From NCBI GenBank assembly GCA_023485845.1, contig JAMCZE010000010.1, positions 156,046 to 220,045 on the forward strand: DNA of 64,000 nt, in the 5' to 3' direction. Of this stretch, positions 9,121 through 60,057 are shown piece by piece; within the stretch, counting starts at the first letter, position 1; each line of letters opens with the position of its first letter. Below the pieces are notes generated by a model, which was not told the DNA's origin, did not search any database, and saw nothing but the letters and a program-made list of their open reading frames with translations. The DNA is from Patescibacteria group bacterium. Its GTDB lineage: Bacteria > Patescibacteriota > Microgenomatia > JAMCZE01. Both the position numbers and the translations under genes were made by a program.

Positions 9121-9149
9121 TTGACAATCTTAAAAATACTTCCTACAAT
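9121..9149 (+). promoter_or_regulatory. sigma70-type promoter (TTGACA-17-TACAAT) with a 7-bp dyad operator (TATGAAT-GTAT-ATTCATA) just downstream, ahead of arsR
   Basis: Perfect consensus hexamers at 9121-9126 and 9144-9149. The dyad at 9149-9166 overlaps the arsR start region. Confidence 0.55.
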
Positions 9150-9153
9150 ATGA

Positions 9154-9820: not shown

Positions 9821-9853
9821 ACAGAGTTTGTTTCTCGCTTAGCTCGAAATAAT

Positions 9854-12059: not shown

Positions 12060-12063
12060 TTTT

Positions 12064-12546
12064 ATGCACAAATTTTATAAACTCCAATCGTTAGTTCTGC
12101 TCGCCGGGACAATTTTTGTCTGGTTCACGGTTTATACTGATTTCAGTCGATTTTATAAATTCTATGGCTCTTTAACCCGTATACAAAATTGCGTTATCCC
12201 CAACCCCATAACTACGCCATGTTTTTATGGTGCCTTTGCTTTCTTAATTGCTTTTATTTGGTCACTGTTTATCCTCAAAAAGAAAGTTGAAGAAAGATTG
12301 CCCCAGGAAATTAAACTAAGAATCCTTTTGATCGCTTCTACAATTTTCGCTTGGAGCAACTTTTTCTTGGGAATCAATCAATATTATTCTGCTATAAGCG
12401 GCCCAAAAGTTTCTTGTTCCGGAGTACCGACAAATAACCCCATTCTCACTGCTTGTTTTTTTGGTTCGATTATATTTTTGATAGCTCTTGCCGTTTCAAT
12501 AACTATTATCCGTAGCAATAGGCATTCTGCTGATAGTAGTTGCTAA
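12064..12546 (+). CDS. small 4-TM membrane protein with an internally duplicated TM-(Cys-x10-12-Cys loop)-TM unit
   Basis: 160 aa. Loops CVIPNPITTPCFYG and CSGVPTNNPILTACFFG each sit between two hydrophobic helices. Confidence 0.5.
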   Translation: MHKFYKLQSLVLLAGTIFVWFTVYTDFSRFYKFYGSLTRIQNCVIPNPITTPCFYGAFAFLIAFIWSLFILKKKVEERLPQEIKLRILLIASTIFAWSNFFLGINQYYSAISGPKVSCSGVPTNNPILTACFFGSIIFLIALAVSITIIRSNRHSADSSC

Positions 12547-12596
12547 CGTAGTTCACTAGGGACTGCCATTTTTCTAGGCACGATTTTAATATCAAA

Positions 12597-13775: not shown

Positions 13776-13906
13776 AAATCACAATAAGGCCTATTCTATC
13801 ATTTACCTTGGTAACAAGTTGCTGACATAGTTTATTAGGGTCTGCCAATTTTCTAGGCACGATTTTCGTAACAAACAACGTCAGACCCGCAAGAGGAATC
13901 GGACTT

Positions 13907-14620
13907 CTAAAAATTTTTACCAGTTCTGGAGATTTCGTCAATGAAACTTAAATTACCTTTAAAGGCTTTAACGATATTGATTTCTCTCATGAAAGCTTCC
14001 TTTGTCTGAAACGGTTTCGTGATGTAATTTTCTACTTCTGCTGCCTTAACCCACTCGTATTTACCTTCCTCACTTTCTACTAATTTACCTTCTGGATTTC
14101 TGAAAACGCATAACGCCAATAATAAATCGTCAAGTAATTCGCTCGTGGCTTCGTCAAGCGTGCAGTAGTGTAAAATTGCCACCACTTCCGGCTCACCGTT
14201 TAATCCTGTTTCTTCAAATAACTCTCTTTTCGCTGCGTCACCAAATCTTTCACCTAATTCCACTTTCCCTGCGGGAAAACCCTGACAACCATAAAATGGG
14301 TGTTTTAATCTAGTGTAAAGTAAAAACTTGGCGCCTTCCTTTTCTTCTTTTACACAGCACACTGCTACCCCAATTTTTGCTTGCTGGCGAATAGTTGCTT
14401 CCCCCAAATCCATACGTGCAGCAAATTTTTTCCCTTGTGTTGTTAAATAATATTTTCCGTCGTTTTTTTGAATACGACCTAATTTAATAAGCTGGTCCAA
14501 ATGAAACTGAAACTGGTTATTACCCATATCTTTATCTGGCTTAAGCTTGGTATAAGAGAGAGGCTGTTCGAAGGCAAGTTTCTTAATTATCTCAAGTTGG
14601 GTCTTATGTATATTCTCCAT
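13907..14620 (-). CDS. NUDIX hydrolase with an N-terminal winged-helix DNA-binding domain
   Basis: Nudix box GFPAGKVELGERFGDAAKRELFEETGL in the C-terminal half. The N-terminal roughly 90 aa is wHTH-like. Confidence 0.7.
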   Translation of the reverse strand: MENIHKTQLEIIKKLAFEQPLSYTKLKPDKDMGNNQFQFHLDQLIKLGRIQKNDGKYYLTTQGKKFAARMDLGEATIRQQAKIGVAVCCVKEEKEGAKFLLYTRLKHPFYGCQGFPAGKVELGERFGDAAKRELFEETGLNGEPEVVAILHYCTLDEATSELLDDLLLALCVFRNPEGKLVESEEGKYEWVKAAEVENYITKPFQTKEAFMREINIVKAFKGNLSFIDEISRTGKNF

Positions 14621-14889
14621 ATAAAGGGATTATACCTTGCTAGCAGCTCATTTCTAGTCTAGCCTTATTGACTACGCAGAAGATACTAGAACCGCCCTGC
14701 ATTTTCTTGGTAGTAGTTACTACTACAGTTCACTGGGATCTACTTGTGCAAGCATTACACAACTATAAACTTTTGAGCACAATAAGTTCGAATGTGTTCC
14801 ATCCAGGGCTGCCAATTTTCACTTTCAGAGTATTTAGCTACTATGTTGAATGGTACTGTCAAGTACCCCTTTTGTTGCACACTCTTTCT

Positions 14890-15654
14890 CTAAACCCGGC
14901 TTAGAAATTTTGCCTTGAATTTGACCGGGGAAGTCTTGAGCTTGGTGTGGATCCTCTCGTGGTTGTAATAGTTGATGGTTTTGTGAATAGCCTCCACAAA
15001 CTCGCCGATCGTCTCAAATCTTTCAAATTCCAATCCTAAGTCTGTTTTAAAGTTGTCGTAGAAGGATTCCTGGTAACCGTTCTCCCAAGGACTGGCTTTA
15101 GCAGACATGCTCACCTGGATTCCCAGGCCTTCTAAAAAGTTGGTGTAATCCTTCGAGTTGTACTCGGCTCCCTGATCAGTGTGAGCCACTACTGGTTTAC
15201 CCACTGTTTTAATGGCATCCAAGAAAGCCTCAAGAACCAACTCTGTAGTGTGCCTGGTGGAAATTGACCAGCCAACAATTTCCCGGGTAAACAGATCCAT
15301 AAAAGTGGCTAGGTAAATAATCCTCTGGTTCCAGGCTAGCCGGGTAAAATCCCCGGCAAAATAGACTCGGGGTTTGATGGGACAACTACCCTTAATTAGA
15401 TTGGGAAACTTTGACAGTGGATTTCCCCAATCTTTCTTTTTTGTCCACCTGGCCTTTCTCTTGTAGGGTTTAATCCCAAATAATTTCATCACTCGTCTGA
15501 CTCGTTTCTTCCCGATTTCCAAAGCCAAAGCTACTCTCCGGTGGCCATAACTAGGATTAGTTTCCAAGATCTTAAGGATTTGCTCTTTTAGAGCCGAATC
15601 TTTTGTCCCTTGCCTAAGGTTGTCGGTGTAAAGATTTCTTCGGGAGATGCCCAA
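14890..15654 (-). CDS. IS3-family transposase OrfB (DDE integrase core)
   Basis: rve-type core: D in HTDQGAEY, E in SPWENGYQESF. The frame is open upstream to the A-run. The track start is TTG. Confidence 0.85.
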   Translation of the reverse strand: MGISRRNLYTDNLRQGTKDSALKEQILKILETNPSYGHRRVALALEIGKKRVRRVMKLFGIKPYKRKARWTKKKDWGNPLSKFPNLIKGSCPIKPRVYFAGDFTRLAWNQRIIYLATFMDLFTREIVGWSISTRHTTELVLEAFLDAIKTVGKPVVAHTDQGAEYNSKDYTNFLEGLGIQVSMSAKASPWENGYQESFYDNFKTDLGLEFERFETIGEFVEAIHKTINYYNHERIHTKLKTSPVKFKAKFLSRV

Positions 15655-15706
15655 AGAATTGGAAATAAGGGACTTGGGTATTTGAGGAAGCTTGGCTTCG
15701 ACAATT

Positions 15707-15961
15707 TTACCTAAGTTTCTTTTTTTTTACCTTCTCCACTTCCAGAGACAAAACCCCAATGATCTCCTTTAGTTGCCGGTTCTCTTTTTTAAGTCTCAGG
15801 TGCTCAATCCAGCTGACTTTGTTGGTGGTGTTCCACCTAAGCCAGCCATAAATGGTTTTGGGGGAGATTCCGTAAGTTTGGGCCAGAGTGGCGGCAGATT
15901 CCCCGGATTTAATCTTGGCCAGGACCTCCTCTTTGACCTCTTTGGCAATAGCGGTTTTCAA
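15707..15961 (-). CDS. IS3-family transposase OrfA (HTH plus leucine zipper)
   Basis: 84 aa, HTH (LAQTYGISPKTIYGWLRW). It ends in the A9G slippery run GTAAAAAAAAAG. Confidence 0.85.
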   Translation of the reverse strand: MKTAIAKEVKEEVLAKIKSGESAATLAQTYGISPKTIYGWLRWNTTNKVSWIEHLRLKKENRQLKEIIGVLSLEVEKVKKKKLR

Positions 15962-16011
15962 AAATATTCACCCCCTTAAATAAGTGTCCTTAGTTTACAG
16001 ACACTGTGTGC

Positions 16012-16040
16012 ATTTTAAGGGGTACCTGTCCTACTGTCAA
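16012..16040 (-). promoter_or_regulatory. junction promoter formed by the abutted IS3 ends: TTGACA (16040-16035), 17-nt spacer, TAAAAT (16017-16012), reading toward orfA of copy A
   Basis: The -35 hexamer lies in the end of copy B and the -10 hexamer in the end of copy A. The 17-nt spacer was read directly from the sequence. Confidence 0.6.
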
Positions 16041-16067
16041 GTACCCCTTTTGTTGCACACTCTTTCT

Positions 16068-16832
16068 CTAAACCCGGCTTAGAAATTTTGCCTTGAATTT
16101 GACCGGGGAAGTCTTGAGCTTGGTGTGGATCCTCTCGTGGTTGTAATAGTTGATGGTTTTGTGAATAGCCTCCACAAACTCGCCGATCGTCTCAAATCTT
16201 TCAAATTCCAATCCTAAGTCTGTTTTAAAGTTGTCGTAGAAGGATTCCTGGTAACCGTTCTCCCAAGGACTGGCTTTAGCAGACATGCTCACCTGGATTC
16301 CCAGGCCTTCTAAAAAGTTGGTGTAATCCTTCGAGTTGTACTCGGCTCCCTGATCAGTGTGAGCCACTACTGGTTTACCCACTGTTTTAATGGCATCCAA
16401 GAAAGCCTCAAGAACCAACTCTGTAGTGTGCCTGGTGGAAATTGACCAGCCAACAATTTCCCGGGTAAACAGATCCATAAAAGTGGCTAGGTAAATAATC
16501 CTCTGGTTCCAGGCTAGCCGGGTAAAATCCCCGGCAAAATAGACTCGGGGTTTGATGGGACAACTACCCTTAATTAGATTGGGAAACTTTGACAGTGGAT
16601 TTCCCCAATCTTTCTTTTTTGTCCACCTGGCCTTTCTCTTGTAGGGTTTAATCCCAAATAATTTCATCACTCGTCTGACTCGTTTCTTCCCGATTTCCAA
16701 AGCCAAAGCTACTCTCCGGTGGCCATAACTAGGATTAGTTTCCAAGATCTTAAGGATTTGCTCTTTTAGAGCCGAATCTTTTGTCCCTTGCCTAAGGTTG
16801 TCGGTGTAAAGATTTCTTCGGGAGATGCCCAA
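16068..16832 (-). CDS. IS3-family transposase OrfB (copy B)
   Basis: Identical to 14890-15654. Confidence 0.85.
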   Translation of the reverse strand: MGISRRNLYTDNLRQGTKDSALKEQILKILETNPSYGHRRVALALEIGKKRVRRVMKLFGIKPYKRKARWTKKKDWGNPLSKFPNLIKGSCPIKPRVYFAGDFTRLAWNQRIIYLATFMDLFTREIVGWSISTRHTTELVLEAFLDAIKTVGKPVVAHTDQGAEYNSKDYTNFLEGLGIQVSMSAKASPWENGYQESFYDNFKTDLGLEFERFETIGEFVEAIHKTINYYNHERIHTKLKTSPVKFKAKFLSRV

Positions 16833-16884
16833 AGAATTGGAAATAAGGGACTTGGGTATTTGAGGAAGCTTGGCTTCGACAATT

Positions 16885-17139
16885 TTACCTAAGTTTCTTT
16901 TTTTTTACCTTCTCCACTTCCAGAGACAAAACCCCAATGATCTCCTTTAGTTGCCGGTTCTCTTTTTTAAGTCTCAGGTGCTCAATCCAGCTGACTTTGT
17001 TGGTGGTGTTCCACCTAAGCCAGCCATAAATGGTTTTGGGGGAGATTCCGTAAGTTTGGGCCAGAGTGGCGGCAGATTCCCCGGATTTAATCTTGGCCAG
17101 GACCTCCTCTTTGACCTCTTTGGCAATAGCGGTTTTCAA
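16885..17139 (-). CDS. IS3-family transposase OrfA (copy B)
   Basis: Identical to 15707-15961. Confidence 0.85.
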   Translation of the reverse strand: MKTAIAKEVKEEVLAKIKSGESAATLAQTYGISPKTIYGWLRWNTTNKVSWIEHLRLKKENRQLKEIIGVLSLEVEKVKKKKLR

Positions 17140-17332
17140 AAATATTCACCCCCTTAAATAAGTGTCCTTAGTTTACAGACACTGTGTGCATTTTAAGGGG
17201 TACCTGTCCACTTTATAAAGATAATGCAACCATAAGGCAAGCGGATTTCCCATTGTTAATTGATGTTTTTTTTGAAAATGCTAAGCCTAATATCCAAAAA
17301 CTTTTGGCTGTAGAAGCAGAAATTATTAGAGA

Positions 17333-17877
17333 GTGACACTCCTCGCAGCAAGCTGCGAGGCATCTGCATTGCTAAAATAGCCTGAGTTGGTCTTTTGATA
17401 TTTGGACATAGTCTTTTGGTCTTCCTTGGTTTCTGATGTACTTTTGGATGACTGTCTCAGAATTGCTTCGTCCTACTGAATTTACGAAATACCCGTCAGT
17501 CCAAAACTGGGCTCCCCAAAGGCTTTCCCTCAACCCGGCAACTCGTTTGAGAAGTTCCCGGGCCAGGATACTTTTGACCGTTCTGGCAATTTTGGTAGGA
17601 GAATATGTAGGCACTGACTGGATCAAAAAATGGACATGATCACCGTCGGCCCCAATCTCCACAAAATGCATCTCGTACCTTTGGGAAATTTCCTGACAGA
17701 TCTGTTTTAGTTGGGCATCCACCTCTGTCGAGATCACGAGTTGCCTTCCCTTGGCCACACAAACCAGATGGTACAAAAGCACCGAGACATTGTGCGCTTT
17801 GTGTATGTAGATACTCACGCATACAATTTTACCCTCTCGCGGCAAAGCCGCGGGGAATGAACCCTAAAAGAGATTCA
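17333..17877 (-). mobile_element. IS200/IS605-family insertion sequence, copy 2
   Basis: Identical to the 545-bp copy 1. Confidence 0.85.
17372..17845 (-). CDS. tnpA: IS200-like Y1 transposase TnpA (copy 2)
   Basis: Identical to 1594-2067. Confidence 0.9.
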   Translation of the reverse strand: MPREGKIVCVSIYIHKAHNVSVLLYHLVCVAKGRQLVISTEVDAQLKQICQEISQRYEMHFVEIGADGDHVHFLIQSVPTYSPTKIARTVKSILARELLKRVAGLRESLWGAQFWTDGYFVNSVGRSNSETVIQKYIRNQGRPKDYVQISKDQLRLF

Positions 17878-17899
17878 CAATCTTAAAATAGCTTTTAAT

Positions 17900-18355
17900 T
17901 CAGATAACCAGTTTTGCAAAAAGACTTTTGGAGGGAGGCGTGAGTTTAACCTTTGCTAATTCTTCAAGAGTAAACCATTTGTATTCTGACAATTCATCAT
18001 CAAGCTGAACTTTTACCTCACTGCTATTTCTATCATTGATGTCAATTCGATAGACGTTGAAATGCATTTCAACAAGAACCCTCTCATTTGTGTCCTTTAA
18101 GGTTTTTTCTGATGTTCCCGTTCCCTCATCATTAACAAGTTCAGTTGCGTACCCTTCAACCTCTAACCCTATTTCTTCTTTCAGTTCTCTTCTTAATGCC
18201 TGAGTCTTGTTTTCGCCTTGATCCACACCTCCTCCTGGAATATGCCAGCAATCAATATAAACTCCACCGCCAGTTGGATTCTTTTTTACCATCAATAATC
18301 TTTTATCTTTTGAAAAAAGTAAGCCCGATACAATTTCTCTCTTGATCGTTCTCAT
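17900..18355 (-). CDS. NUDIX hydrolase
   Basis: Nudix box GGGVDQGENKTQALRRELKEEIGL. 151 aa. Lies between IS200 copies 2 and 3. Confidence 0.85.
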   Translation of the reverse strand: MRTIKREIVSGLLFSKDKRLLMVKKNPTGGGVYIDCWHIPGGGVDQGENKTQALRRELKEEIGLEVEGYATELVNDEGTGTSEKTLKDTNERVLVEMHFNVYRIDINDRNSSEVKVQLDDELSEYKWFTLEELAKVKLTPPSKSLFAKLVI

Positions 18356-18380
18356 ATTATTTCTTTACGTTGTAATGTAA

Positions 18381-18925
18381 GTGACACTCCTCGCAGCAAG
18401 CTGCGAGGCATCTGCATTGCTAAAATAGCCTGAGTTGGTCTTTTGATATTTGGACATAGTCTTTTGGTCTTCCTTGGTTTCTGATGTACTTTTGGATGAC
18501 TGTCTCAGAATTGCTTCGTCCTACTGAATTTACGAAATACCCGTCAGTCCAAAACTGGGCTCCCCAAAGGCTTTCCCTCAACCCGGCAACTCGTTTGAGA
18601 AGTTCCCGGGCCAGGATACTTTTGACCGTTCTGGCAATTTTGGTAGGAGAATATGTAGGCACTGACTGGATCAAAAAATGGACATGATCACCGTCGGCCC
18701 CAATCTCCACAAAATGCATCTCGTACCTTTGGGAAATTTCCTGACAGATCTGTTTTAGTTGGGCATCCACCTCTGTCGAGATCACGAGTTGCCTTCCCTT
18801 GGCCACACAAACCAGATGGTACAAAAGCACCGAGACATTGTGCGCTTTGTGTATGTAGATACTCACGCATACAATTTTACCCTCTCGCGGCAAAGCCGCG
18901 GGGAATGAACCCTAAAAGAGATTCA
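18381..18925 (-). mobile_element. IS200/IS605-family insertion sequence, copy 3
   Basis: Identical to the 545-bp copy 1. Confidence 0.85.
18420..18893 (-). CDS. tnpA: IS200-like Y1 transposase TnpA (copy 3)
   Basis: Identical to 1594-2067. Confidence 0.9.
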   Translation of the reverse strand: MPREGKIVCVSIYIHKAHNVSVLLYHLVCVAKGRQLVISTEVDAQLKQICQEISQRYEMHFVEIGADGDHVHFLIQSVPTYSPTKIARTVKSILARELLKRVAGLRESLWGAQFWTDGYFVNSVGRSNSETVIQKYIRNQGRPKDYVQISKDQLRLF

Positions 18926-18958
18926 GGAATGGGAAGCACAAGGAGGATTTAATAAGAA

Positions 18959-19174
18959 ATGAAGCTCGGAAAATACCAACATTCCAAAACTGGAAACTTC
19001 TACAGAGTTATTGGTATTGCAAAACACTCTGAAACACTTGAGGATTTGGTCGTTTATGAATGTTTATACGATAACCCTAAAAGCAAGCTATGGGTACGCC
19101 CTAAGAAAATGTTTTTAGAAAAAGTTGAGATCAACGGAAAGAAAGTACCTCGCTTTAAGTTTATTGAAGAATAA
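18959..19174 (+). CDS. DUF1653-family protein
   Basis: YRVIGIAKHSETLEDLVVYECLY...LWVRPKKMFLEKV...VPRFKFI matches the DUF1653 pattern. Confidence 0.7.
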   Translation: MKLGKYQHSKTGNFYRVIGIAKHSETLEDLVVYECLYDNPKSKLWVRPKKMFLEKVEINGKKVPRFKFIEE

Positions 19175-19295
19175 TAGCTGGTTGAGGATTTAAGAACTGT
19201 CTGATCTTTCCAACGTCAAAAGAGCTTATTTCATGCCAAACTTGTCGAAGTTCGGACACGAAGGCCTGCCCTTGAAATTCTGCTAAAATACACAC

Positions 19296-19637
19296 ATGCA
19301 AATTGCCACCGGAACTGTCCACACGGTGCCCCCGGACTTGAAAAAAGCCCTGGCGGCTGACCCCGGCGCGCTGGAAAAATGGAACAGTCTGACGCCGCTG
19401 GCCCGAAACGAATGGATTTGCTGGACAACTTTTGTTAAAAAAGCGCAGACCAGGGAAGAGCACGTTGACCGGGTGTGCTCCGAACTTAAAGACGGCATGC
19501 GCCGGCCGTGTTGCTGGCTAGGCTGCATTCACCGCCCCGACAAACCCCTAAGTCCGTCAGTGAAATATGTGCTTAGCCGAAAAAATATGGTAAAATGGAG
19601 GCATGGTGAATTGGTCCACGGACGAAAAAAAGTTTAA
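19296..19637 (+). CDS. YdeI/OmpD-associated family protein
   Basis: Pattern LKKALAADPGALEKWNSLTPLARNEWICW...AQTREEHVDRV is typical of that family. Confidence 0.6.
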   Translation: MQIATGTVHTVPPDLKKALAADPGALEKWNSLTPLARNEWICWTTFVKKAQTREEHVDRVCSELKDGMRRPCCWLGCIHRPDKPLSPSVKYVLSRKNMVKWRHGELVHGRKKV

Positions 19638-19854
19638 GCGGAACTATCCCAGGGAATATAAACTTTGGCACTTAATCCAACTTATTAATTATGGACTTGA
19701 AGGGGAGAAGCTTGACGAGAAAGAGGTTAGGAAAGCCTGGCCAAGAATAAGGGACCAGTTAGACCCCCATAAGGCAACTTATCTTGAATTCTTATTATGG
19801 GATCACAAACCATCCTCAATCCAATTCAACGAGAATTTCTGGGCCTTATCATAA
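19603..19854 (+). CDS. hypothetical 83-aa protein overlapping the start of the next gene
   Basis: ORF only. 58-bp overlap with the NTase gene in another frame. Confidence 0.3.
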   Translation: MVNWSTDEKKFKRNYPREYKLWHLIQLINYGLEGEKLDEKEVRKAWPRIRDQLDPHKATYLEFLLWDHKPSSIQFNENFWALS

Positions 19855-20462
19855 AGGAACCATATATTCTCAAACATTATTACTGGACCGGTGGGACCGC
19901 ACTGGCTGAATTCTATCTTCGCCATCGGGAATCGGAAGATATTGATCTGTTTTCGGAAAACGAAGTTAATGTCGGGGCGATCTCAAATTTCGTTGGAGCG
20001 ATGGCCAAAAAAATTGAAGCGACCGATATAACCAGCCAGCGTTTCCTTGGGCTCTACAGTTTCACTTTCCACCTGCCGAAAACATCACTAAAAGTTGATT
20101 TTAACTACTATCCTTTCCTTCGAATTGATCAAAAGAAAAAATGGCAAGGATTAGCCGTTGACAGTCTCGAGGACATCGCCGTCAATAAAGTGCACACGAT
20201 GTTTATGAAGCCGCGGGCGAGGGATTTTGTTGATCTTTACTTTATTCTCAAAAAAGAATACGAGTTTTCTTTGGAAAGATTAATCAATCTAGCCGATGCC
20301 AAGTTTGATTGGCACATCGAACCGGTGCAGCTCGGAGAAAACTTTGCCAAAGTGGTTGCAATTAAAGATTTCCCAAAAATGCTCGTTCCTTTTGACAAAA
20401 AAGCCATGGAAAAATTTTTTCTGAATTTAGCAAAATCACTAAAACCGCAGATTTTCCAATAA
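19797..20462 (+). CDS. AbiEii/DUF1814-like nucleotidyltransferase
   Basis: The GGTAL...SEDIDLF motif (GSx10DxD NTase signature) lies near the N-terminus. About 220 aa. Confidence 0.5.
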   Translation: MGSQTILNPIQREFLGLIIKEPYILKHYYWTGGTALAEFYLRHRESEDIDLFSENEVNVGAISNFVGAMAKKIEATDITSQRFLGLYSFTFHLPKTSLKVDFNYYPFLRIDQKKKWQGLAVDSLEDIAVNKVHTMFMKPRARDFVDLYFILKKEYEFSLERLINLADAKFDWHIEPVQLGENFAKVVAIKDFPKMLVPFDKKAMEKFFLNLAKSLKPQIFQ

Positions 20463-32948: not shown

Positions 32949-33711
32949 GAATTGCGTGGCCGGTGAGGGTCAGGAAAGCATCCTCCATGGAAGTCTTTTT
33001 TGTCTGTTTTTTCAGCTGGGCGGGGGTGCCGGCAGCAATAATCTTGCCGTGGTCCATAATCGCCACCTTGCCTGCCGGCAGGCAGGCCCGCTCGGCCTCG
33101 TCCATATAATGCGTTGTGAAGAACACGGTGATGTTTTCTGTTTTATTCAAATTTTTGATGTACTCCCAAATATGATTGCGCGTCTGTGGGTCCAGTCCTT
33201 GGGTTGGCTCGTCCAGAAAGAAAATCTTCGGATGATGAAGCAGGCCGCGAGCAATCTCTAACCGCCGCTTCATTCCCCCGGAAAAGTTTTTCACTAAATC
33301 ATTGCGCCGCTCCCAAAGTTCAACAAATTTTAAAAGTTCCTCGGCTCTTTTGCGACCCAGGTCGCGCGGGACACCATAAAGCACTCCATGAAACTCCAGG
33401 TTTTCCCAGGCCGTCAGCTCGTCATCCAGGCTGGGATCCTGAAAAACAATGCCGAAAGCCCGGCGGACTGCCTCCTGGTCGGTCGCCGGGTCGGCGCCAT
33501 TAATTTCAATCCTGCCCGATGTCGGCGCCAAAAGGGTGGTCAGCATTTTAATCGTCGTGGTCTTGCCCGCCCCGTTGGGCCCCAAAAACGCGAAAATCTC
33601 CCCGGCGGCCACATCAAAAGAAATGTTGTCCACCGCCAGAAAATTATTGAACTTTTTTGTCAACCCGGAAACTTTAATCATGAAAGTTATGCTATCATTG
33701 GACGATGCCAA
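32881..33711 (-). CDS. ABC transporter ATP-binding protein
   Basis: Walker A GPNGAGKTT, signature LSGGMKRRLEIARGL, Walker B IFFLDEPTQGLD. Confidence 0.9.
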   Translation of the reverse strand: MASSNDSITFMIKVSGLTKKFNNFLAVDNISFDVAAGEIFAFLGPNGAGKTTTIKMLTTLLAPTSGRIEINGADPATDQEAVRRAFGIVFQDPSLDDELTAWENLEFHGVLYGVPRDLGRKRAEELLKFVELWERRNDLVKNFSGGMKRRLEIARGLLHHPKIFFLDEPTQGLDPQTRNHIWEYIKNLNKTENITVFFTTHYMDEAERACLPAGKVAIMDHGKIIAAGTPAQLKKQTKKTSMEDAFLTLTGHAIRDEEAGAIDHLRAGARMWGRRR

Positions 33712-34727
33712 AATACAAGCCGGAGATTGACATCCTCAAAGCGACCGCCATTATCGCCGTGGTTTTGATTCACGTCAGCGCCGCCTATATGGCCCACGGC
33801 TACGATCTAATTAACCTGACAGTCAACCAGGCCGCCCGTTTTGCAGTCCCTGTTTTTGTTGCTCTGTCCAGTTTTGGCTTGGCCGGTAAATACCTAGCAA
33901 CTAAGCTGGAGTTGAAAGATTTCTTCGTCCGTCGGGCCCTGCGGCTTTTACCCTGGTTTTTCTTCTGGGAGGTCATCATTTTTGTCACCGTCACCTATGT
34001 TTTGCGCCAAAGCTGGATTCTTTATGACGGGCTGCCATTATGGAAAATTTTTATACTCGGAAAGGCCGATTATCACCTCTATTTCGTGCCAATGATCTTC
34101 GTTCTTTATCTGTTTTTTCCGATATTATTGCAATTTATTAAACGCTTTCCAAAGCTGACCTTGCTAGCTGCTTTTCTGTTTCAAATTTACTGGTATTGGC
34201 AAATCACGACCCAAACCGAACTGCTTTCCAACCGCAATAATGTCTGGACGGACCAAATGCAATATCTCAACCCCCTCACCTGGATTTTTTACTTCGTTTT
34301 CGGCATGTTTTTAGCTCGTGCTAAAAGCTACAAGCTACAAGCTATTAGCCTAGTTGCTTTGTTAGTTGGTCTTGTCTGGACTGTTGCCAGTTCTGGTTAT
34401 CTGATGTCGTCTGGTTTTGAGATCACCGTCGCCACCCGTTTCACCCGCTTCCCGGTCCTACTCTACTCGATTGGGGTAATCTTGTCTGGCCTTCTCGTCT
34501 TACCTTCTCTCCCGCTTACCCGCTTACCCACTTTCCTCACCCGTCTTGGTAAATTATCGTTATTGGTTTATCTCTGCCACACCCTCGTTCTTCGCGCTGT
34601 GCCGCTAACCTTTCCCGAACCGATAGTCTTTATTTTAGTTTTGGCCGGCAGTTATCTCATCGCTGAAGTTTGCTCCCACATTAGCTTCAAGAGACCACCT
34701 CTCGTGAAGCTACTTGCAAAAAACTGA
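33705..34727 (+). CDS. acyltransferase-3 (OafA-like) family membrane acyltransferase
   Basis: N-terminal IDILKATAIIAVVLIHV motif plus about 10 TM segments. Confidence 0.75.
   Translation: MPKYKPEIDILKATAIIAVVLIHVSAAYMAHGYDLINLTVNQAARFAVPVFVALSSFGLAGKYLATKLELKDFFVRRALRLLPWFFFWEVIIFVTVTYVLRQSWILYDGLPLWKIFILGKADYHLYFVPMIFVLYLFFPILLQFIKRFPKLTLLAAFLFQIYWYWQITTQTELLSNRNNVWTDQMQYLNPLTWIFYFVFGMFLARAKSYKLQAISLVALLVGLVWTVASSGYLMSSGFEITVATRFTRFPVLLYSIGVILSGLLVLPSLPLTRLPTFLTRLGKLSLLVYLCHTLVLRAVPLTFPEPIVFILVLAGSYLIAEVCSHISFKRPPLVKLLAKN
34682..34712 (+). repeat. 31-bp hairpin-containing repeat tagcttcaagagaccacctctcgtgaagcta (left flank of the RAYT gene)
   Basis: Identical to 35408-35438. Contains the imperfect palindrome cttcaagaga-ccacc-tctcgtgaag. 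Confidence 0.8.
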
Positions 34728-46539: not shown

Positions 46540-46678
46540 GCAAATTGTAAATTGAAAATTCGTGTGTATCCAGTGTGCCCAGATTTGCATAGATTTGTCA
46601 AGAGTGTACATAGATTTTTGTGAAAATAGAATCAAAAAGTAGAGCAAAGTATATCAAATTTGTGAAGGAACCGTGAAG

Positions 46679-51431: not shown

Positions 51432-52196
51432 TTAAAATCTAAGAATTAGCAAGGCACCGGCAATGCCGATAATCCCCACTACGGCAATCATTCCCACGTT
51501 AAGCGCCATGGACAAATAAATCGTGTGCCGGGCCAAGGGATTGCGCCCGATCGCCTCGACCGCTTTGGGCAGCGACCGGGAAAAAGTGATAAAACCGAAG
51601 CCAAAGCTAATGAGCAAAACCACGGCCGCCAAGATATAGCGGACAATCATCCCGAACTGCTCCGGGTTCTTCACATTAGAGAAGAAAGATGCCCCAAGAT
51701 ACTCTAACAACCGATTGGCGTTACGCGCTGTTGTTAGTTCCGCATACTCAATCCGCAGTGCCACCGGAACTTGGCCATCCTTATCGGCGCTAGCCAAAGC
51801 AATACCCAAAACATAGCCCGATTGGGTGGCTTTCTGGGCCTTGCCGGGAGTTTGTGACGAGGTCAAATAGTCCCCGGCGGCAATTGCTCCGTTGGCCATC
51901 ACCACGTTAACAGTGGCCACTCCGGTGCGCGCCACTGGCCGAGCGCCAGCTTCCCCACTTTGCAGCACCACCACAGAGTTATCGGCTAAAACACCGAAAA
52001 TATTATTGTCATAAGGAATCGTCGCTCGTTTAAAGCCGTTTTGGGTGCTAACAATAATATCACCACTGGTTGCACCAGGATCGTTAATCGCAAATGTCCC
52101 AGCCGCATCAAGCCCCTCCGCGTGAACGGGAATTGGGCTAATTGGATTAATTAGGTAAATTAGACTAATTAGACAAATTTGAATTATTTTCATCAT
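51432..52196 (-). CDS. c-subunit-like 2-TM hairpin fused to a roughly 170-aa N-terminal secreted domain, in the atpE position
   Basis: The C-terminus GFGFITFSRSLPKAVEAIGRNPLARHTIYLSMALNVGMIAVVGII resembles c-subunit helix-loop-helix (GxGxG, SR...IARQPE, MIAV). No Asp/Glu in TM2. Signal peptide at the N-terminus. Confidence 0.4.
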   Translation of the reverse strand: MMKIIQICLISLIYLINPISPIPVHAEGLDAAGTFAINDPGATSGDIIVSTQNGFKRATIPYDNNIFGVLADNSVVVLQSGEAGARPVARTGVATVNVVMANGAIAAGDYLTSSQTPGKAQKATQSGYVLGIALASADKDGQVPVALRIEYAELTTARNANRLLEYLGASFFSNVKNPEQFGMIVRYILAAVVLLISFGFGFITFSRSLPKAVEAIGRNPLARHTIYLSMALNVGMIAVVGIIGIAGALLILRF

Positions 52197-52876
52197 TTCC
52201 AGAATACCAGCTTTTCTTGCAGAAGCAAAAGGGGAAAGATAATTGTTGCATTAATAATTCTTTTGACATGGTTTGGTCGATTATGTTCCCGTACTAGTCG
52301 CCAAACCCATTCCAGACCAAGTTTGGCCAACCACTCCGGCGGCAAGGGTTTTGTCCCGGAAATATAATCAAAAGCCCCACCGACACCCATACCCACACGA
52401 AATTTACAATTTACAACTTTCAATTTACAATCCCAAAGAAACTTTTCTTGTTTTGGGTGGCCAAGGGCAACGAAGAATAAATCGGGGTTTTGAGAAACGA
52501 TCTTTATCCCGGGGAAAAGTTGGCACAAGCGGTCGGCAGTTTTTTCCGCCACTCCCGCCGCTGCCCCATACAGTCCCACCGTCCAGTTTTTTTTGGCCGC
52601 CAGCCGGCAAAGGTCTAGCATTAACTCTCGACCCGGCAGTCGATGTTTTATCTTTCCAAAAAGTCGTAAGCCAATCCCCTCCGGTAAACTTAAATCCGTG
52701 TTGTCCAAAATCTCTTTAAACGCCAAATCTTTTTGGGCGGTGACCAAAAATTCCGGGCCGACTGTCACTATAAGTCTTTGTTTTTTAGACTTCCCTATAA
52801 GCCATGAAGAAATAATCCCAAGAACTTCATTTTTTGGGTAATCATCGATTTTTATGCCTAAGATTTTTTTTGTCAT
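52193..52876 (-). CDS. WecB/TagA/CpsF-family glycosyltransferase
   Basis: GHPKQEKF...VGGAFDY...LGLEWVWRL signature. Confidence 0.8.
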   Translation of the reverse strand: MTKKILGIKIDDYPKNEVLGIISSWLIGKSKKQRLIVTVGPEFLVTAQKDLAFKEILDNTDLSLPEGIGLRLFGKIKHRLPGRELMLDLCRLAAKKNWTVGLYGAAAGVAEKTADRLCQLFPGIKIVSQNPDLFFVALGHPKQEKFLWDCKLKVVNCKFRVGMGVGGAFDYISGTKPLPPEWLAKLGLEWVWRLVREHNRPNHVKRIINATIIFPLLLLQEKLVFWK

Positions 52877-53054
52877 CTGATCCGGTTTGATCCACTCCCG
52901 TTGGGATCTCCCCTGCTAAAAACTCTAAGATAGAAAATTGTCACTTTTTTAAAACTGCCAAACTGCCAAATCTGAACACTTTTTTTCGAGCCTAAAATCT
53001 GGTTTATGTGACTTAAGTAACTTAAGTTACTTAAGTCACTTATAGGTCGTCGCT

Positions 53055-54059
53055 TCAGCGACGACTTAGGCTCTTTTTATAAAATTCAATGTTCTCCATC
53101 GCTACCCCGCAGCCCTTGACGACACAAAAAAGTGGGTCATCGGCCACATGGACCGGAACACCAAGAGTATGGGTCATCAACTTATCTAAATTTCGCAGAT
53201 TAGCCGTCCCTCCACTAAGCACGATGCCCTTATCAATTATGTCTGAGGCTAATTCTGGGGGGGTTTCCTCTAGCACTCCCTTTACGGCACTGATAACGAG
53301 CGTCAAGGTCGCCGTTATCGCCTCCACGACCTCATTGGAAGTCAAATTAAGCATTCGGGGCAGCCCGGACGCGCCATCTCGACCGCGAACTTCCATTTGC
53401 CCGGTGGCTGGCAGGGCCGAGCCAATAGTCATTTTAATCTCTTCCGCAGTGCGTTCCCCCACCATGAGATTATATTTTTTCTTAAGATAAGTTTGGATTG
53501 CTTCGTCGATTTTGTTGCCCGCCACCCGGGCCGACCGATGAATCACCACTCCACCCAAAGAGATCACTGCCGCTTCGGTGCTGCCGCCGCCGATGTCCAC
53601 GATCATTGACCCATTGGGGTTGGCAATGGGAATTTTCGCCCCGATGGCCGCCGCCAGCGGTTCGTCAATTAAGTAAGCCGTCTTAGCCCCGGCAGAAACG
53701 GTGGCGTCCATCACCGCCCGGCGCTCCACCTGTGTCACACCGGCGGGAACGCAGATCATCACCTCCGGACGAAACAGGCGGGAATTGCCGCAGGTCCGAT
53801 CAATAAAATAAGCCAGCATTGCCTGGGTGACTTCGTAGTCGGCAATCACCCCGTCGCGCATCGGCCGCTTGGCCATGATGTTGCCGGGGGTCCGCCCGAG
53901 CATTTGTTTGGCTTCATTGCCCACCGCCACCACTTTACCGTCATCCACCGTCACCACCACCACGGTCGGTTCATTAAGCACCACCCCCTGGCCCACCAAA
54001 AAGACCAGGGAGTTTGCTGTCCCCAAATCAATGCCTAACCGCTTTCCAAAATTAAACAT
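53055..54059 (-). CDS. mreB: rod shape-determining protein MreB
   Basis: LGIDLGTANS, DIGGGSTE and LSGGTA actin-fold motifs. Confidence 0.95.
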   Translation of the reverse strand: MFNFGKRLGIDLGTANSLVFLVGQGVVLNEPTVVVVTVDDGKVVAVGNEAKQMLGRTPGNIMAKRPMRDGVIADYEVTQAMLAYFIDRTCGNSRLFRPEVMICVPAGVTQVERRAVMDATVSAGAKTAYLIDEPLAAAIGAKIPIANPNGSMIVDIGGGSTEAAVISLGGVVIHRSARVAGNKIDEAIQTYLKKKYNLMVGERTAEEIKMTIGSALPATGQMEVRGRDGASGLPRMLNLTSNEVVEAITATLTLVISAVKGVLEETPPELASDIIDKGIVLSGGTANLRNLDKLMTHTLGVPVHVADDPLFCVVKGCGVAMENIEFYKKSLSRR

Positions 54060-54195
54060 AATTCGCGAATTTGAAATTTGAAATTTTCAATTTGAACTAA
54101 AACTTAACAATTCTTCAAATTCTAATTTTCAAATTGAATATTCAATTCAAATTTTAAATTGTAAATTTCAAATTGTTTTGTGCTAGAATTGTGTC

Positions 54196-55368
54196 GTGTC
54201 TCGTTCTACCATTGCCATTATATCAGCCCTGGTGATCCTTGGTGGGGCAATTTTTGTGGCCATTGCCCTGGCCCGCGGCTTCCAATTTGACCTTTCGAAA
54301 AGATCTCTGTCACCCACCGGCATTCTGGTGGCCACTTCCGATCCCGACGGCGCCGAGGTTTTTATTAACAGCAAACTAGCCACTGCTACCAATAACACCA
54401 TTAATCTTGCCCCGGGCCGCTACAGCGTAAAAATTACCAAGGACGGTTTTGTCTCTTGGGAAAAAAACATTGAGATTAAGCCGGAGGAAGTCTACAAAAC
54501 TAATGTTTTTTTGTTTCCCTCCCTGCCGGATTTGCGGCCGCTGACTTTAACCGGCGCCCAGGATCCCAGTTTGTCCTCAGATGGCACCAAGATTGCCTAC
54601 GTGGTCGCCTCCGCGTCCGCTGCGGAACGCAATGGGGTGTGGATTGCCGACATGGGCCGGCTGATTCCCTCGCCGTTTGCTTCCAGCGCCGATCTGCGTC
54701 AAATCTACCGCGGCGACATTAGCACCGCCAGTTTTCTCTGGTCCCCCGACGGCACTCAACTGCTGGCGTCTGTCAGCGGGAAACTAAATATTCTTCTGGT
54801 GACCAGCCAAATTAATGACCAACCCACATTCCTGGCCACCCCCGGCGCCACCCTGGCTTTGTGGGCAAGCCAGGCGGCGGCAAAACTCGCCACCCAGGAA
54901 ACCAAGCTCGCCCCAACCGTGCTGGCCACCCTGGCGACCGCCAGCGCTGATCTCACTTTCTCCCCCGATGAAACTAAAATCCTCTACCAAGCCACTTCTT
55001 CCGCCTACTTACCTACTTACCTACTTACCTACTTACCGGGGACTAACCCGACCCCCCAAGTTCGCCATCTCACCGCCGGCAACACCTATGTTTATGACCT
55101 AAAAGAAGACCGAAATTATTTAATTAAAAACTGTTCTAATTGCACCTGGTTTCCGTCATCAAGGCATCTGTTGTCCCATACGGACAAGGTTATTTCGGCC
55201 ATGGAATATGACGGCACCAATGAGGCGATCCTCTATGCCGGACCATTTGTTCCTCCGCCGGCCGGCGGGGTTTTTGCCTGGCCCAATTGGAGCAAAATTG
55301 TCATCCTCACCTCCCTCAACGGCGCCGGGGGAATCGGAGAAAACTTGTACACGATTAATCTTAGATAA
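54196..55368 (+). CDS. PEGA-domain plus TolB-like beta-propeller protein, membrane anchored
   Basis: N-terminal TM. PEGA-like (PDGAEVFINSKLA) region. Repeated SPDG(T/E)K motifs of TolB-like blades. Confidence 0.6.
   Translation: MSRSTIAIISALVILGGAIFVAIALARGFQFDLSKRSLSPTGILVATSDPDGAEVFINSKLATATNNTINLAPGRYSVKITKDGFVSWEKNIEIKPEEVYKTNVFLFPSLPDLRPLTLTGAQDPSLSSDGTKIAYVVASASAAERNGVWIADMGRLIPSPFASSADLRQIYRGDISTASFLWSPDGTQLLASVSGKLNILLVTSQINDQPTFLATPGATLALWASQAAAKLATQETKLAPTVLATLATASADLTFSPDETKILYQATSSAYLPTYLLTYLPGTNPTPQVRHLTAGNTYVYDLKEDRNYLIKNCSNCTWFPSSRHLLSHTDKVISAMEYDGTNEAILYAGPFVPPPAGGVFAWPNWSKIVILTSLNGAGGIGENLYTINLR
55006..55037 (+). repeat. octanucleotide microsatellite (tacttacc) x4 inside the PEGA/TolB-like gene
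   Basis: Four exact tandem units. Encodes YLPTYLLTYLP. Confidence 0.85.
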
Positions 55369-55452
55369 TTTAAAAATCAAAATTTAAAAGTTAAAAGTTC
55401 GAGTTAAAATTATTAATTCTGACTTGCAATTTTGCCTTTTGATTTTTGAATT

Positions 55453-56118
55453 TTAACTTGTTTTTAACCGGGCAAACACCAGCAACCGTTCCAGCGTTGT
55501 TCCCGGTGGCCAACAGGTCTGGAGTGTCAGCATGGAGAAATTCGCCTGAGCGGTTAAATAGCCGGTGGCGTCCGGCGGGACAATCTTCTTGTCATAGACC
55601 ACGTAGATAAACCGCCGACCCTGGTAGAAAAGATCCACTTCATCGCCGGGGGCCAGCTCCCGCAGCAGATAGAACACCGCGTTCCAACGGTTGACTTCCC
55701 AGAAATTACCCACCGAATGGGCAAAAAGAAACACGTCACCGACCTGGCCAGGATTAACCGTTCCCCTGGCCTGGGCCACCCCTTGTTTTAAGGCCGCCAA
55801 ATACTCCGTTTCATTGCCCGGGTCAACATTGGGAATCACTTTCGCGTTAGCGTTAATCTTGGGAATAACCACGCCAAAATCGAGGTCCACTGGGGTGATT
55901 GGCAGAGTGTTGGGAGCCACGGCCAGGAGATTAGCTCGCTGCTGCGGTGTGTCCACCACCACAAACTGTTTGCCGGCCAGATTATCATAGCGATAAACCA
56001 CTTCCGCCTGGATCGCCGGAGAAAAGGTCAAAATGACCCCGGCAATCGCCGAAAGCAACAAAAAATTGCCAACAGTTCTCAAAACGAAAATTTTGATGAA
56101 ATCACTACCAATCGTCAT
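55453..56118 (-). CDS. sortase-family transpeptidase
   Basis: N-terminal TM. His in FAHS, the LTLQTC (TLxTC) active-site Cys motif, and a downstream Arg. Confidence 0.7.
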   Translation of the reverse strand: MTIGSDFIKIFVLRTVGNFLLLSAIAGVILTFSPAIQAEVVYRYDNLAGKQFVVVDTPQQRANLLAVAPNTLPITPVDLDFGVVIPKINANAKVIPNVDPGNETEYLAALKQGVAQARGTVNPGQVGDVFLFAHSVGNFWEVNRWNAVFYLLRELAPGDEVDLFYQGRRFIYVVYDKKIVPPDATGYLTAQANFSMLTLQTCWPPGTTLERLLVFARLKTS

Positions 56119-56155
56119 TGAAAATTGTAAATTGGAAATTGAAAATTCGCGTGTG

Positions 56156-56229
56156 TGCTCCCGGGCAGAGTCGAACTGCCAGTCTTTCCCTTAGGACGGG
56201 ACTGCTCGATCCAATTGAGCTACGGGAGC
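56156..56229 (-). tRNA. tRNA-Arg (anticodon CCT)
   Basis: Cloverleaf folded by hand. 7-bp acceptor stem GCTCCCG/CGGGAGC, T-loop TTCGACT, anticodon loop GTCCTAA. Confidence 0.75.
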
Positions 56230-56272
56230 TCACTCCTAATTATACTGCTTAATTATGTTAAAATGGGGTTCA

Positions 56273-56347
56273 CGGGGTGTAGGTCATCGGTAGACCGCTC
56301 GGTTCGGGTCCGAGAGGCAGTGGGTTCAATTCCCGCCACCCCGACCA
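56273..56347 (+). tRNA. tRNA-Pro (anticodon CGG), CCA encoded
   Basis: Acceptor stem CGGGGTG/CACCCCG, anticodon stem-loop CTCGG-TTCGGGT-CCGAG, T-loop TTCAATT, 3' ACCA. Confidence 0.8.
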
Positions 56348-56958
56348 GGCTTTTTCTCCCAATCAACCGAATAAAGGATCTCGTCCTGCGCCCGTTTATA
56401 ATCGAAAATTTCCTCCGGTTTAAACCAAATTTTGATCTCATGCTCAGCCTCTTCGACTGTTCCGGAAGCGTGAACCAAAGTACGCACTGACCGGCGATCC
56501 TCATCAGCCAAAAAGTAAGAATCAACCGTATAATCCGCGGTGATCGTTCCCACTTCGGCCTGCAACGGGTTGGTGTGTCCGCGCATCTTGCGCACTTGGG
56601 CCACCGCGTGAGCTCCCTCAATCACCATCACCAACACCGGACCGGCCGAGAGATAACTTTTCAGCCATGACTGAATTCTTTTGGCAATTTGCAGCGGGGT
56701 TTCCTTCATCTCAATCCCCCGCTCCCTAAATGAGGCGATTGTTCGCTCCCCCAAAAGCCGGGCGGCCGACTCCGGCTGGTCATAGTGAATGCCAGCTAGC
56801 TTCTCATCCGGCCAAACCATCTTCATCGCCACAATTTTCAGACCCTTGCGCTCAAACCGGGTGATAATTTCTCCCATGATCCCCCGCGCCACCACATCCG
56901 GTTTTAAAATCACCAGTGTTTGCTCAATGAATTTAGATTTCTTAGGCATATAAAACAA
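56326..56958 (-). CDS. ndk: nucleoside diphosphate kinase
   Basis: TLVILKPDVV, NPLQAEVGTI and VHASGTVEEA motifs. The ORF 3' end overlaps tRNA-Pro on the other strand, so the true stop may differ. Confidence 0.85.
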   Translation of the reverse strand: MFYMPKKSKFIEQTLVILKPDVVARGIMGEIITRFERKGLKIVAMKMVWPDEKLAGIHYDQPESAARLLGERTIASFRERGIEMKETPLQIAKRIQSWLKSYLSAGPVLVMVIEGAHAVAQVRKMRGHTNPLQAEVGTITADYTVDSYFLADEDRRSVRTLVHASGTVEEAEHEIKIWFKPEEIFDYKRAQDEILYSVDWEKKPGRGGGN

Positions 56959-58267: not shown

Positions 58268-58450
58268 TTAACCTTCTTTTGTCTCTGGGCGATTCCTTTT
58301 TTCTCGAGCCCGCCTCTCCACTTCCTCCGCTAACCGCCGGTTAGCTTCTTGTTGCAGTTGGGTCACGTCGCCACGATCAGCTGCCTTTTGTTCCTGCTGT
58401 CTGATCTGTGCTTCTTTAAGTCTTTTTGTTAGTGGTCCAGCCATCATCAC
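58268..58450 (-). CDS. small charged hypothetical protein
   Basis: ORF only. Confidence 0.3.
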   Translation of the reverse strand: MMMAGPLTKRLKEAQIRQQEQKAADRGDVTQLQQEANRRLAEEVERRAREKRNRPETKEG

Positions 58451-60057
58451 ATCCTTTCCAAGGCTTCGATGCCCAAAAGATTTAAGCCGTTTTTTAAAAC
58501 ATCCGCTGTCGTCGCGGTCAATTTCAACCGCAAATCATTGCCCAAAATCGGGCAATTGTTATAGAAATTATTATAGCGCTTCGCCAGTTCAAATAAATAG
58601 GAACAGACTAAATTTGGGGCATATTGCCTAGCCGCCGCCTCCACCACCTCGGGAAAACGGTAGAGATAGCGCAAAAGAGCCAGTTCTTCATTAGTTAGTT
58701 CTCCCGTGATTTTTGCCTTTTGATTTTTGCCTTTTGATTTGCGAAGTACGCTCTGCGCACGAGCAAACGTGTATTGCAAATACGGCCCCGAGTCACCCTG
58801 CAGTTCAAACATTTTCTCCCAATCAAAAACAATGTCGCTTTGGACACCATGTTTTAAGTCAAAATATTTAATCGCCCCAATCCCCACAGCCTGGGCAGCT
58901 TCCTGACTGCCCAATTTAGCCGCCCTGGCAATCGCCTCCTGTAAGATGCCTTCCAATTTTGGTGTGTTTCCTTCTCTGGTCCGGAATCGGCCGCTGGGCC
59001 AGCGGTACATCCCATGGCGAGTGTGGCACAAAATCGCTCCCTGTTTAACATAGCCCAGTTGTCTTGCCACCGCAAAAACCTGACGAAAATGCAGTTCCTG
59101 ATCAACACCCACTTCATAGATCATTATGTCCGGATTCCACTGTTCTTTACGAAATTTTAACGTGGCCAAATCACGAGTGGCGTAAGTGGTTGCCCCATCG
59201 CTTTTAACCAGCATCAGCGGGATTTTAATGCCGGGAATTTCAACCACTCGGGCGCCATCACTTAACTTGGAAATTTTTTGCGCGTCCATAATCACTGCCG
59301 GCATTTTGTCCTCATAGAAACTTTCCCCATAAGCAAAGTCAATCTTCACACCAAGCAGGTCAAAAATCCGGTTAAATTCTTCCATGGAAACATCCACGCA
59401 CTTTTTCCAAAGATTCCGGGCCTTTTTGTCGCCGTCTTCCAGCCGCTTGAACCAGAATCTGGCGGCCGCTTCCATCTGCGGTGTTGACTGCCGGTGAAAT
59501 TCAACGTACCATTTTTCCAAATCATCAATGGTGAAATCGCCCTTTGCCTTCTCGTTAATCATGTAGAGCAGCTTGCCGAATTGGGTTCCCCAGTCGCCCA
59601 GATGGTTGTCACCGATCACTTTGTAGCCCAATGACTGATAAATGTTATAAAGAGCCTGGCCAATGATCGTGGAGCGCAGATGGCCCACGCCAAAACGGCG
59701 GGCAATGTTAGGAGCCGCATAGTCAATCACCACCGTTTTTCCTTTGCCAATTGGCGCGATCTCAATCTTTTGCGCTGCTTCCATTAACGCTGCTGGGGAC
59801 AAGGTGAAGTTAATAAATCCCGGCCCAGCAACACTAGCTTCAAGAGAGGTGGTCTCTTGAAGCTGGACCACAATTTTTTGTGCCACTTCCCGGGGATGGC
59901 CAGTTTTTAACTTCAGGGCAATGTTTGTGGAATAATCGCGGTGCTCCTGGGCTGTCGGGTGTTCCAGCTCAATATCTTCCGGCTTTAGATTAATTTCCGG
60001 GAAAGCTGTTTTCACAGCTTTTAAAACGGCCTGGCGAATGTCATCGGCAATCATCAT
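58447..60057 (-). CDS. argS: arginyl-tRNA synthetase
   Basis: AGPGFINF, the class I HIGH-type region (APNIARRFGVGHLRST), and overall length. Confidence 0.9.
   Translation of the reverse strand: MMIADDIRQAVLKAVKTAFPEINLKPEDIELEHPTAQEHRDYSTNIALKLKTGHPREVAQKIVVQLQETTSLEASVAGPGFINFTLSPAALMEAAQKIEIAPIGKGKTVVIDYAAPNIARRFGVGHLRSTIIGQALYNIYQSLGYKVIGDNHLGDWGTQFGKLLYMINEKAKGDFTIDDLEKWYVEFHRQSTPQMEAAARFWFKRLEDGDKKARNLWKKCVDVSMEEFNRIFDLLGVKIDFAYGESFYEDKMPAVIMDAQKISKLSDGARVVEIPGIKIPLMLVKSDGATTYATRDLATLKFRKEQWNPDIMIYEVGVDQELHFRQVFAVARQLGYVKQGAILCHTRHGMYRWPSGRFRTREGNTPKLEGILQEAIARAAKLGSQEAAQAVGIGAIKYFDLKHGVQSDIVFDWEKMFELQGDSGPYLQYTFARAQSVLRKSKGKNQKAKITGELTNEELALLRYLYRFPEVVEAAARQYAPNLVCSYLFELAKRYNNFYNNCPILGNDLRLKLTATTADVLKNGLNLLGIEALERM

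Follow-up and report, generated by a model that had tools for sequence, protein, structure and literature searches.

Does a perfect tandem repeat with a non-triplet unit, lying inside the coding sequence of a predicted envelope protein, mark a phase-variation switch? The question arises from a 64,000-nucleotide stretch of a Patescibacteria metagenome-assembled genome (hereafter, the window), in which an earlier note had described four perfect 8-bp units at positions 55006-55037, within the gene of a "PEGA/TolB-like envelope protein," and had proposed a potential phase-variation switch of the classical contingency design. The repeat itself is as it was described. Direct reading of the sequence gives exactly (TACTTACC)x4, or tacttacc x4, in this interval of the coding region, and Tandem Repeats Finder places it in a slightly longer span, 55004-55037 (period 8, 4.2 copies, 100% matches, score 68). 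Even when up to two mismatches are tolerated, the two-unit 16-mer occurs in the window only at the array itself, and the number of matches expected from 100 dinucleotide-preserving shuffles is zero; the array is genuine, and a chance event is excluded. The array is read in the frame of the host gene, where the first TAC forms the codon for Tyr271 and the segment reads A270-YLPTYLLTYLP-G282, 69% of the way along the gene (Table 1).

Table 1. Positions in the window of the octanucleotide array, its host gene, and the neighboring or comparable features discussed in the text.
Feature	Position	Strand	Remarks
Host gene, 390 aa	54196..55368	+	Membrane helix 3-26; PEGA beta-sandwich 42-105; PD40-type beta-propeller with helical insert 112-388
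Perfect tandem array, 8-bp unit (CCTACTTA / TACTTACC)	55004..55037	+	34 nt, 4.25 copies; encodes Y271-P281 (YLPTYLLTYLP)
Coding region of residues 267-296	54994..55083	+	Loop between two propeller strands; conserved, ordered, and lacking regular secondary structure
TAA stop after one-unit loss (or two-unit gain)	55044..55046	+	280-aa product
TAA stop after one-unit gain (or two-unit loss)	55100..55102	+	304-aa product; end of alternative-frame ORF 54815..55102
mreB, divergent neighbor upstream	53055..54059	-	Pairing kept in 71/73 related loci
Imperfect array in WecG/TagA-type glycosyltransferase gene (52193..52876, -)	52401-52431	-	AATTTAC x4.4, 83% matches
tRNA-Arg(CCT)	56155-56229	-	Between sortase and NDK genes
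tRNA-Pro(CGG)	56273-56347	+	Between sortase and NDK genes
Comparator array in ArgRS gene	58707..58740	-	34 nt, perfect; 14-nt unit of two alternating heptamers (TGATTTT/TGCCTTT), 2.4 copies

The host gene begins with a GTG codon, and its product (NCBI MCL5432293.1, from the Patescibacteria genome) is supported as a membrane-anchored protein that combines a PEGA domain with a PD40-type propeller. The PEGA domain (PF08308, residues 42-105) scores above its Pfam gathering threshold (E 1.9e-12; 47.3 bits vs. a cut-off of 20.8), and a single PD40 repeat is marginal (22.9 bits vs. a cut-off of 20.9). In a confident AlphaFold2 model based on 36 homologs (mean pLDDT 86.6, pTM 0.80), a membrane helix at the N-terminus is followed by a beta-sandwich and then by a beta-propeller that bears a helical insert. 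The best PDB match of this model in Foldseek is TolB (4pwz, E 2.9e-7), but the TM-score is only ~0.2, and a search of the family profile against PDB sequences recovered no sequence relative. The PEGA part of the earlier label is therefore sound, and "TolB-like" is apt for the type of propeller but for nothing beyond it. Compared with TolB and with other PD40 propeller and PEGA proteins, the host shares the PEGA domain, the one near-threshold repeat, and a predicted propeller for which TolB is the top structural match; unlike TolB, it has no TolB N-terminal domain, its N-terminus being a membrane helix followed by PEGA, and it has no Tol-Pal operon context.

The family also differs from these proteins in being specific to Microgenomates/Patescibacteria and in being paired with mreB. 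A protein search of a 5.8-billion-sequence database returned 675 matches, with source names comprising Patescibacteria, Microgenomates, and Gottesman-, Levy-, and Shapirobacteria. Among the 73 related species loci with sufficient flank, taken from the listed relatives, mreB lies immediately upstream, in divergent orientation, in 71, and a sortase gene (convergent in the window) lies downstream in 16 of 65. The remaining neighbors include ATP synthase genes, a WecG/TagA-type glycosyltransferase, two tRNAs, NDK, an M16 peptidase, ArgRS, and ComEC; the neighborhood is core, shape- and envelope-associated, and is not an accessory island. Given the 675 homologs, the nearly universal mreB pairing, and the housekeeping neighbors, the host is best described as a core gene, and the number of homologs and the synteny, together with the invariant length of the repeat-bearing segment (below), argue for a core role over dispensability. 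Two ORFs in this neighborhood, 56155..56490 and 56253..56621, overlie the tRNA-Arg(CCT) and tRNA-Pro(CGG) genes and are rejected as spurious.

Simple-sequence contingency loci are familiar from the tetranucleotide tracts of Haemophilus influenzae and the CTCTT repeats of Neisseria opa. If the present array were a true contingency locus, reversible slipped-strand changes in unit number would alternate between OFF (three or five units) and ON (four units) and would generate surface heterogeneity within a population. The consequences of slippage are those that the earlier note foresaw: a change of one unit, up or down, ends the protein prematurely, past the PEGA domain and the first propeller blades (280 aa computed for three units, 304 aa for five), and one, four, or seven units preserve the frame (382, 390, and 398 aa). 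The predicted OFF product is a membrane-anchored fragment without the most conserved C-terminal blades. Several features are consistent with a switch—a perfect, non-triplet tract in a coding region, truncation by a single unit in either direction, a product that in the structural model appears membrane-anchored and extracytoplasmic, and a perfection of units, at odds with codon preference, that suggests continuing slippage. The tract also clears the permissive computational cut-off applied to repeats with tetra- to octanucleotide units, a minimum of three copies (Atack et al. 2019; PMC7383803), and short tracts can switch, as is known for tracts of 3-6 tetranucleotide units (TTTA) in icaC of S. 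aureus (PMC4117637). The same survey that supplies the cut-off, however, assigns very low rates to tracts of four units or fewer and regards those without variation among strains as probably not phase-variable (PMC7383803); the switching rate cited there for a three-unit tetranucleotide tract is 0.5-2.0e-6. The present tract has four units only, and its position at 69% of the gene would leave, in the OFF state, an anchored fragment of 280-304 aa with an incomplete propeller.

Unit number does not vary among the records that cover the tract. The earlier note had held that exactly four units in all reads and related strains would refute a switch; four units are present in all three covering assemblies (the window, GCA_023378825.1, and the Logan assembly of SRR10252151), which are consensus sequences and effectively represent one strain. 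Contig 9 of GCA_023378825.1 (L001) shows no substitution over 6 kb, the Logan contig (L130) is 100% identical over 1,251 nt with the tract included, and two other records, L128 (11.3 kb) and L129 (1.2 kb), are likewise 100% identical; the same-strain records together contain 0 substitutions in 17 kb. Exact-protein look-ups returned the same strain only (L001, L128, L129, and L130), and an all-against-all comparison of loci revealed no further same-species pairs.

Alleles of other lengths are likewise missing from the homologs recovered. The window protein belongs to a cluster of two members, and P0001 and P0121 alone exceed 63% identity among the matches listed in the protein search. No N-terminal truncated (OFF) allele is present among the matches listed from the 5.8-billion-sequence search; a product of ~280 aa can be taken as absent from them because it would have ranked second. 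No truncated, one-unit, or seven-unit allele occurs among 104 anchored homologs, and no homolog carries a different number of units. A scan of JGI metagenomes for both flanks with two to five units gave no match, and a second one, for two units preceded by the left flank, gave 41 loci, none homologous to the host gene and most of them in (TACC)n/(TACT)n-type simple-repeat context. Two features expected of contingency loci, a difference in unit number between strains and the joint occurrence of ON and OFF alleles, were therefore not observed, the first in three consensus assemblies of one strain and the second among the listed matches. In this respect the tract resembles the invariant, "theoretically phase-variable" hsdR repeats of the same survey (PMC7383803), which have three to four units, pass the cut-off, and show no variation among examples, although gene class and organism differ and the comparison here is among three assemblies of one strain.

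Length differences of other kinds do separate the two genome assemblies. Relative to the window, L001 contains three indels (~349-372, 2895-2911, and 3447-3455 in its own coordinates; ~54738, 57261, and 57796 in the window), each a candidate variant or assembly error: 12 bp are tandemly duplicated in the PEGA gene, which changes WSPD to WSPDWSPD; a tandem duplication of 17 bp shifts the frame of the M16 peptidase gene; and the third is a 9-bp indel. Contig 11 of GCA_023378825.1 is 100% identical over 11.3 kb.

The segment encoded by the array is also conserved. In a 36-protein alignment, its 13 residues align without gaps to 35 homologs, with A270 invariant and P273, L280, and G282 nearly invariant. 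The surrounding loop has the consensus SAxLPxxLxTYLPGTNPTP, and the array codes for residues 271-281 within it. A scan of genome collections recovered at least 80 species-level relatives, the window's own species not being among the matches listed; among these listed matches the segment has the identical length in 79 of 80 species loci. An ordered loop of 30 residues between propeller strands begins with this segment in the AlphaFold2 model (pLDDT 88-96, and 88 for residues 271-290). Because the segment is gap-free, constant in length, and ordered in the model, the array does not represent an insertion but overlies a segment that is structurally constrained and invariant in length. This distinguishes it from the contingency loci of H. 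influenzae, Neisseria opa, and icaC, which share with it a non-triplet coding tract, frameshift and truncation by one unit, and an envelope product: those tracts lie near the 5' end of accessory genes and this one encodes a conserved loop of a core gene, with four units only, a constant unit number, and no OFF alleles found among the listed matches.

A second array in the window bears directly on whether such anatomy can be read as evidence of a switch. The ArgRS gene (58447..60057, minus strand) contains a perfect 34-nt array that encodes KSKGKNQKAKIT, is identical in the sister assembly L001, and lies in a segment whose alignment with E. coli ArgRS (PDB 4oby) is free of gaps. A frameshift switch in an essential ArgRS is implausible, and a perfect, in-place, non-triplet array is therefore not diagnostic of a contingency gene in this genome. 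The locus is thus a cautionary case: where even essential genes can contain perfect non-triplet arrays, as in this lineage, finding one in the gene of a surface protein does not count as evidence for contingency design. What stands of the earlier proposal is the non-triplet unit, the coding location, the truncation, the envelope product, and the contingency-type anatomy as such; actual switching is unsupported, and against it weigh the invariant unit number in all assemblies, the absence of truncated, one-unit, or seven-unit alleles from the listed matches, the length-invariant loop of a core, mreB-syntenic gene (typical contingency genes being accessory), and the equal array in ArgRS. Most likely, the tract is not a contingency locus but a slippage-prone tract held at four units by selection, and a genuine switch is unlikely. 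Were the tract truly to switch, it would be the first evidence of repeat-mediated surface-protein phase variation in an uncultured CPR bacterium, with a bearing on the surface variation of CPR episymbionts.

The repeat background of the lineage offers a wider context for both arrays. Related loci totaling 616 kb contain 36 perfect arrays, 29 of them with a period of 7 or 14; the modal length is 34 nt, and besides the array of the window there is one other long array of period 8. The WecG homolog next to mreB holds 16 of the 36 in 8% of the bases, a density of 32 per 100 kb vs. 1-5 per 100 kb elsewhere, or a ~7-25-fold concentration across species. Fifteen of the WecG arrays fall within one tblastn alignment, where they form in-frame insertion loops at about four sites. 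At one WecG site, locus L018 carries (AAATTGG)4.86 and locus L041 carries (AAACTGG)4.86: the same base differs in every unit, in genes that are 76% identical. This unit-wide difference implies that arrays in the lineage are homogenized (concerted evolution) at fixed length, as is proposed below for the 8-bp tract. The PEGA homologs in L056 and L079 also contain perfect arrays, as insertions in a variable loop before WFPSS. A literature search on heptanucleotide repeats in CPR/Microgenomates found nothing.

It could be that the conservation of perfect arrays in WecG across diverged species means that selection in this lineage acts on the perfection of arrays as such, and this counts against treating the 8-bp tract as a mere by-product. 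Extended to its limit, the argument would be that lineage-wide non-triplet arrays of ~34 nt, mostly heptamers, are kept perfect by selection as contingency switches in the envelope-biogenesis genes of Microgenomates, namely the WecG/TagA-type glycosyltransferase and the mreB-linked PEGA-propeller gene. We consider this decidedly improbable; were it true, the Candidate Phyla Radiation would gain its first described case of repeat-based phase variation. Whatever its cause, the excess of ~34-nt heptamer arrays concentrated in the WecG gene across Microgenomates is a more useful lead than the octanucleotide tract.

Individual WecG-type arrays have heptamer or 14-nt units and are mostly 28-36 nt long; examples are L018 837-870, L041 1841-1874, L009 1916-1949 and 2422-2454, and L053 1663-1696 and 2080-2109. 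The split of WecG in L047 was considered as an OFF allele and rejected, being merely a scaffold gap of N. In L015 and L047, an insertion in WecG between PKQE and GVGG includes the shared peptide 'ARDDKRIVF' (L015 reads 'GWIPGQARDDKR') and looks like a translated, GC-rich palindromic element inserted in frame. Outside coding sequence, AT-rich heptamer arrays (AATTTGA, AAATTGT, TTAAAAG, AATTTTG, ATTGAAA) occupy the intergenic spacers flanking the PEGA gene on either side; such arrays lie at window positions 54068-54176, 55367-55454, 56117-56147, 46542-46617, and 52952-53042, and the Logan contigs L129 and L130 terminate within them. A 340-aa ORF elsewhere in the window (33705..34727, plus strand) contains three short arrays, at 34320-34344, 34433-34451, and 34511-34533, with units of 7, 9, and 8 nt and 2-3.6 copies; they include CCCGCTTA x2.9, which encodes LPLTRLPTF.

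The origin of the octanucleotide array can be approached through its codons. Given the peptide and the codon usage of the window, the probability of the exact codons is 3.3e-8, with rare codons among those used (CTA, 6.5%; CCT, 7.7%), and in 200,000 synonymous resamplings none exceeded 22 of 24 period-8 matches. In alignments, the variable positions of the motif hold, in the window protein, exactly the residues dictated by the repeat. Because the codons are this improbable and the variable residues follow the repeat, the periodicity was made at the level of DNA. Relatives differ from the perfect array at 5-13 of 32 positions; the imperfect version in L082, TACTTGCC TACTTATC TAAATACC TACCTACC, matches (TACTTACC)4 at 27 of 32. 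Five of six relatives with the Tyr-Leu peptide have 16-17 of 24 period-8 matches, vs. ~11 expected from synonymous resampling (P 0.009-0.04 each, in tests that assume uniform codons and on sequences that are related to one another), which is suggestive of a retained excess of period-8 identity in relatives with this pattern. Relatives without the Tyr-Leu pattern show no such excess.

Beginning from what is directly observed—the repeat, its frame, conservation, synteny, constant length, and equal unit number across assemblies—the most economical path to the array would be homogenization by slipped or templated misalignment without net change in length. The coding stretch may already have been quasi-periodic, since it encoded (Tyr-Leu-x-Thr)-like repeats, and the array would have arisen there in place. 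Slipped-strand or templated misalignment of adjacent 8-nt quasi-units could then have produced identical units at unchanged length, in a homogenization that would have overridden codon preference. The result may have been tolerated in that A-YLPTYLLTYLP-G still fits the loop motif A-x-[LI]-P-x-x-[LI]-x-[TP]-x-L-[PI]-G. Four units would subsequently be maintained by purifying selection on a core, mreB-linked envelope protein, as one-unit slippage would yield truncated null alleles with an incomplete propeller, which would be lost. In our assessment, the array is probably a short coding microsatellite homogenized in place in a core envelope gene, a mutational liability and not a programmed switch; the best explanation further sees it as a by-product of a repeat-prone lineage. 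Against this explanation, a perfect tract implies recent slipped-strand activity, and one-unit changes must therefore occur at some rate.

The proposed process resembles the concerted evolution, or "cryptic simplicity," of coding microsatellites, in which replication slippage usually acts on triplet-compatible repeats or in insertion-tolerant loops. The likeness lies in the identical units despite diverged surroundings, in the imperfect counterparts of relatives, and in the WecG heptamer arrays of the same lineage, with their unit-wide substitutions. The difference is that, here, a non-triplet unit extends over a conserved segment whose length is unchanged.

The excess period-8 identity at synonymous positions in relatives would also fit a nucleotide-level element, with the four direct 8-bp repeats acting as a binding array or RNA signal kept inside the coding sequence. 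Other results make this very improbable. RNA folding around the tract is no better than in shuffles (z = 0.02) and leaves the tract unpaired; a promoter and terminator scan found no promoter-like or terminator-like site there; and no Rfam match occurs at the tract, the sole Rfam match in the window being one tRNA. The unit, moreover, recurs nowhere else in the window, and relatives differ from the array at the 5-13 of 32 positions given above. In-frame length variation, by which steps of three units (1, 4, 7) would shorten or lengthen the loop by eight residues, is compatible with the frame, as one and seven units would leave it intact. Against this, the anchors flanking the segment are 43 residues apart in 98 and 42 residues apart in 6 of the 104 proteins that have both, none of these proteins shows the spacing of 35 or 51 that one or seven units would give, and the loop is conserved and ordered; such variation is extremely unlikely. 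A coincidental choice of codons for a periodic peptide, for which the motif YLxTYLxTYLP alone supplies ~11 of 24 period-8 matches, or an assembly artifact is rejected as having a negligible probability, given the exact-codon and resampling results above and the identical sequence in three separately assembled records.

Homogenization in place thus remains the preferred account of the octanucleotide array. The window also includes a region of different composition, positions 1-20000, where G+C is 38-44% vs. 48-54% elsewhere and where mobile elements are present. This region carries two identical IS3-type integrase ORFs (14890..15654 and 16068..16832) and two identical IS200-type Y1 transposase ORFs (17372..17845 and 18420..18893), as well as an ArsA-type ATPase, a trypsin-like peptidase, a class-III aminotransferase, and a NUDIX protein.
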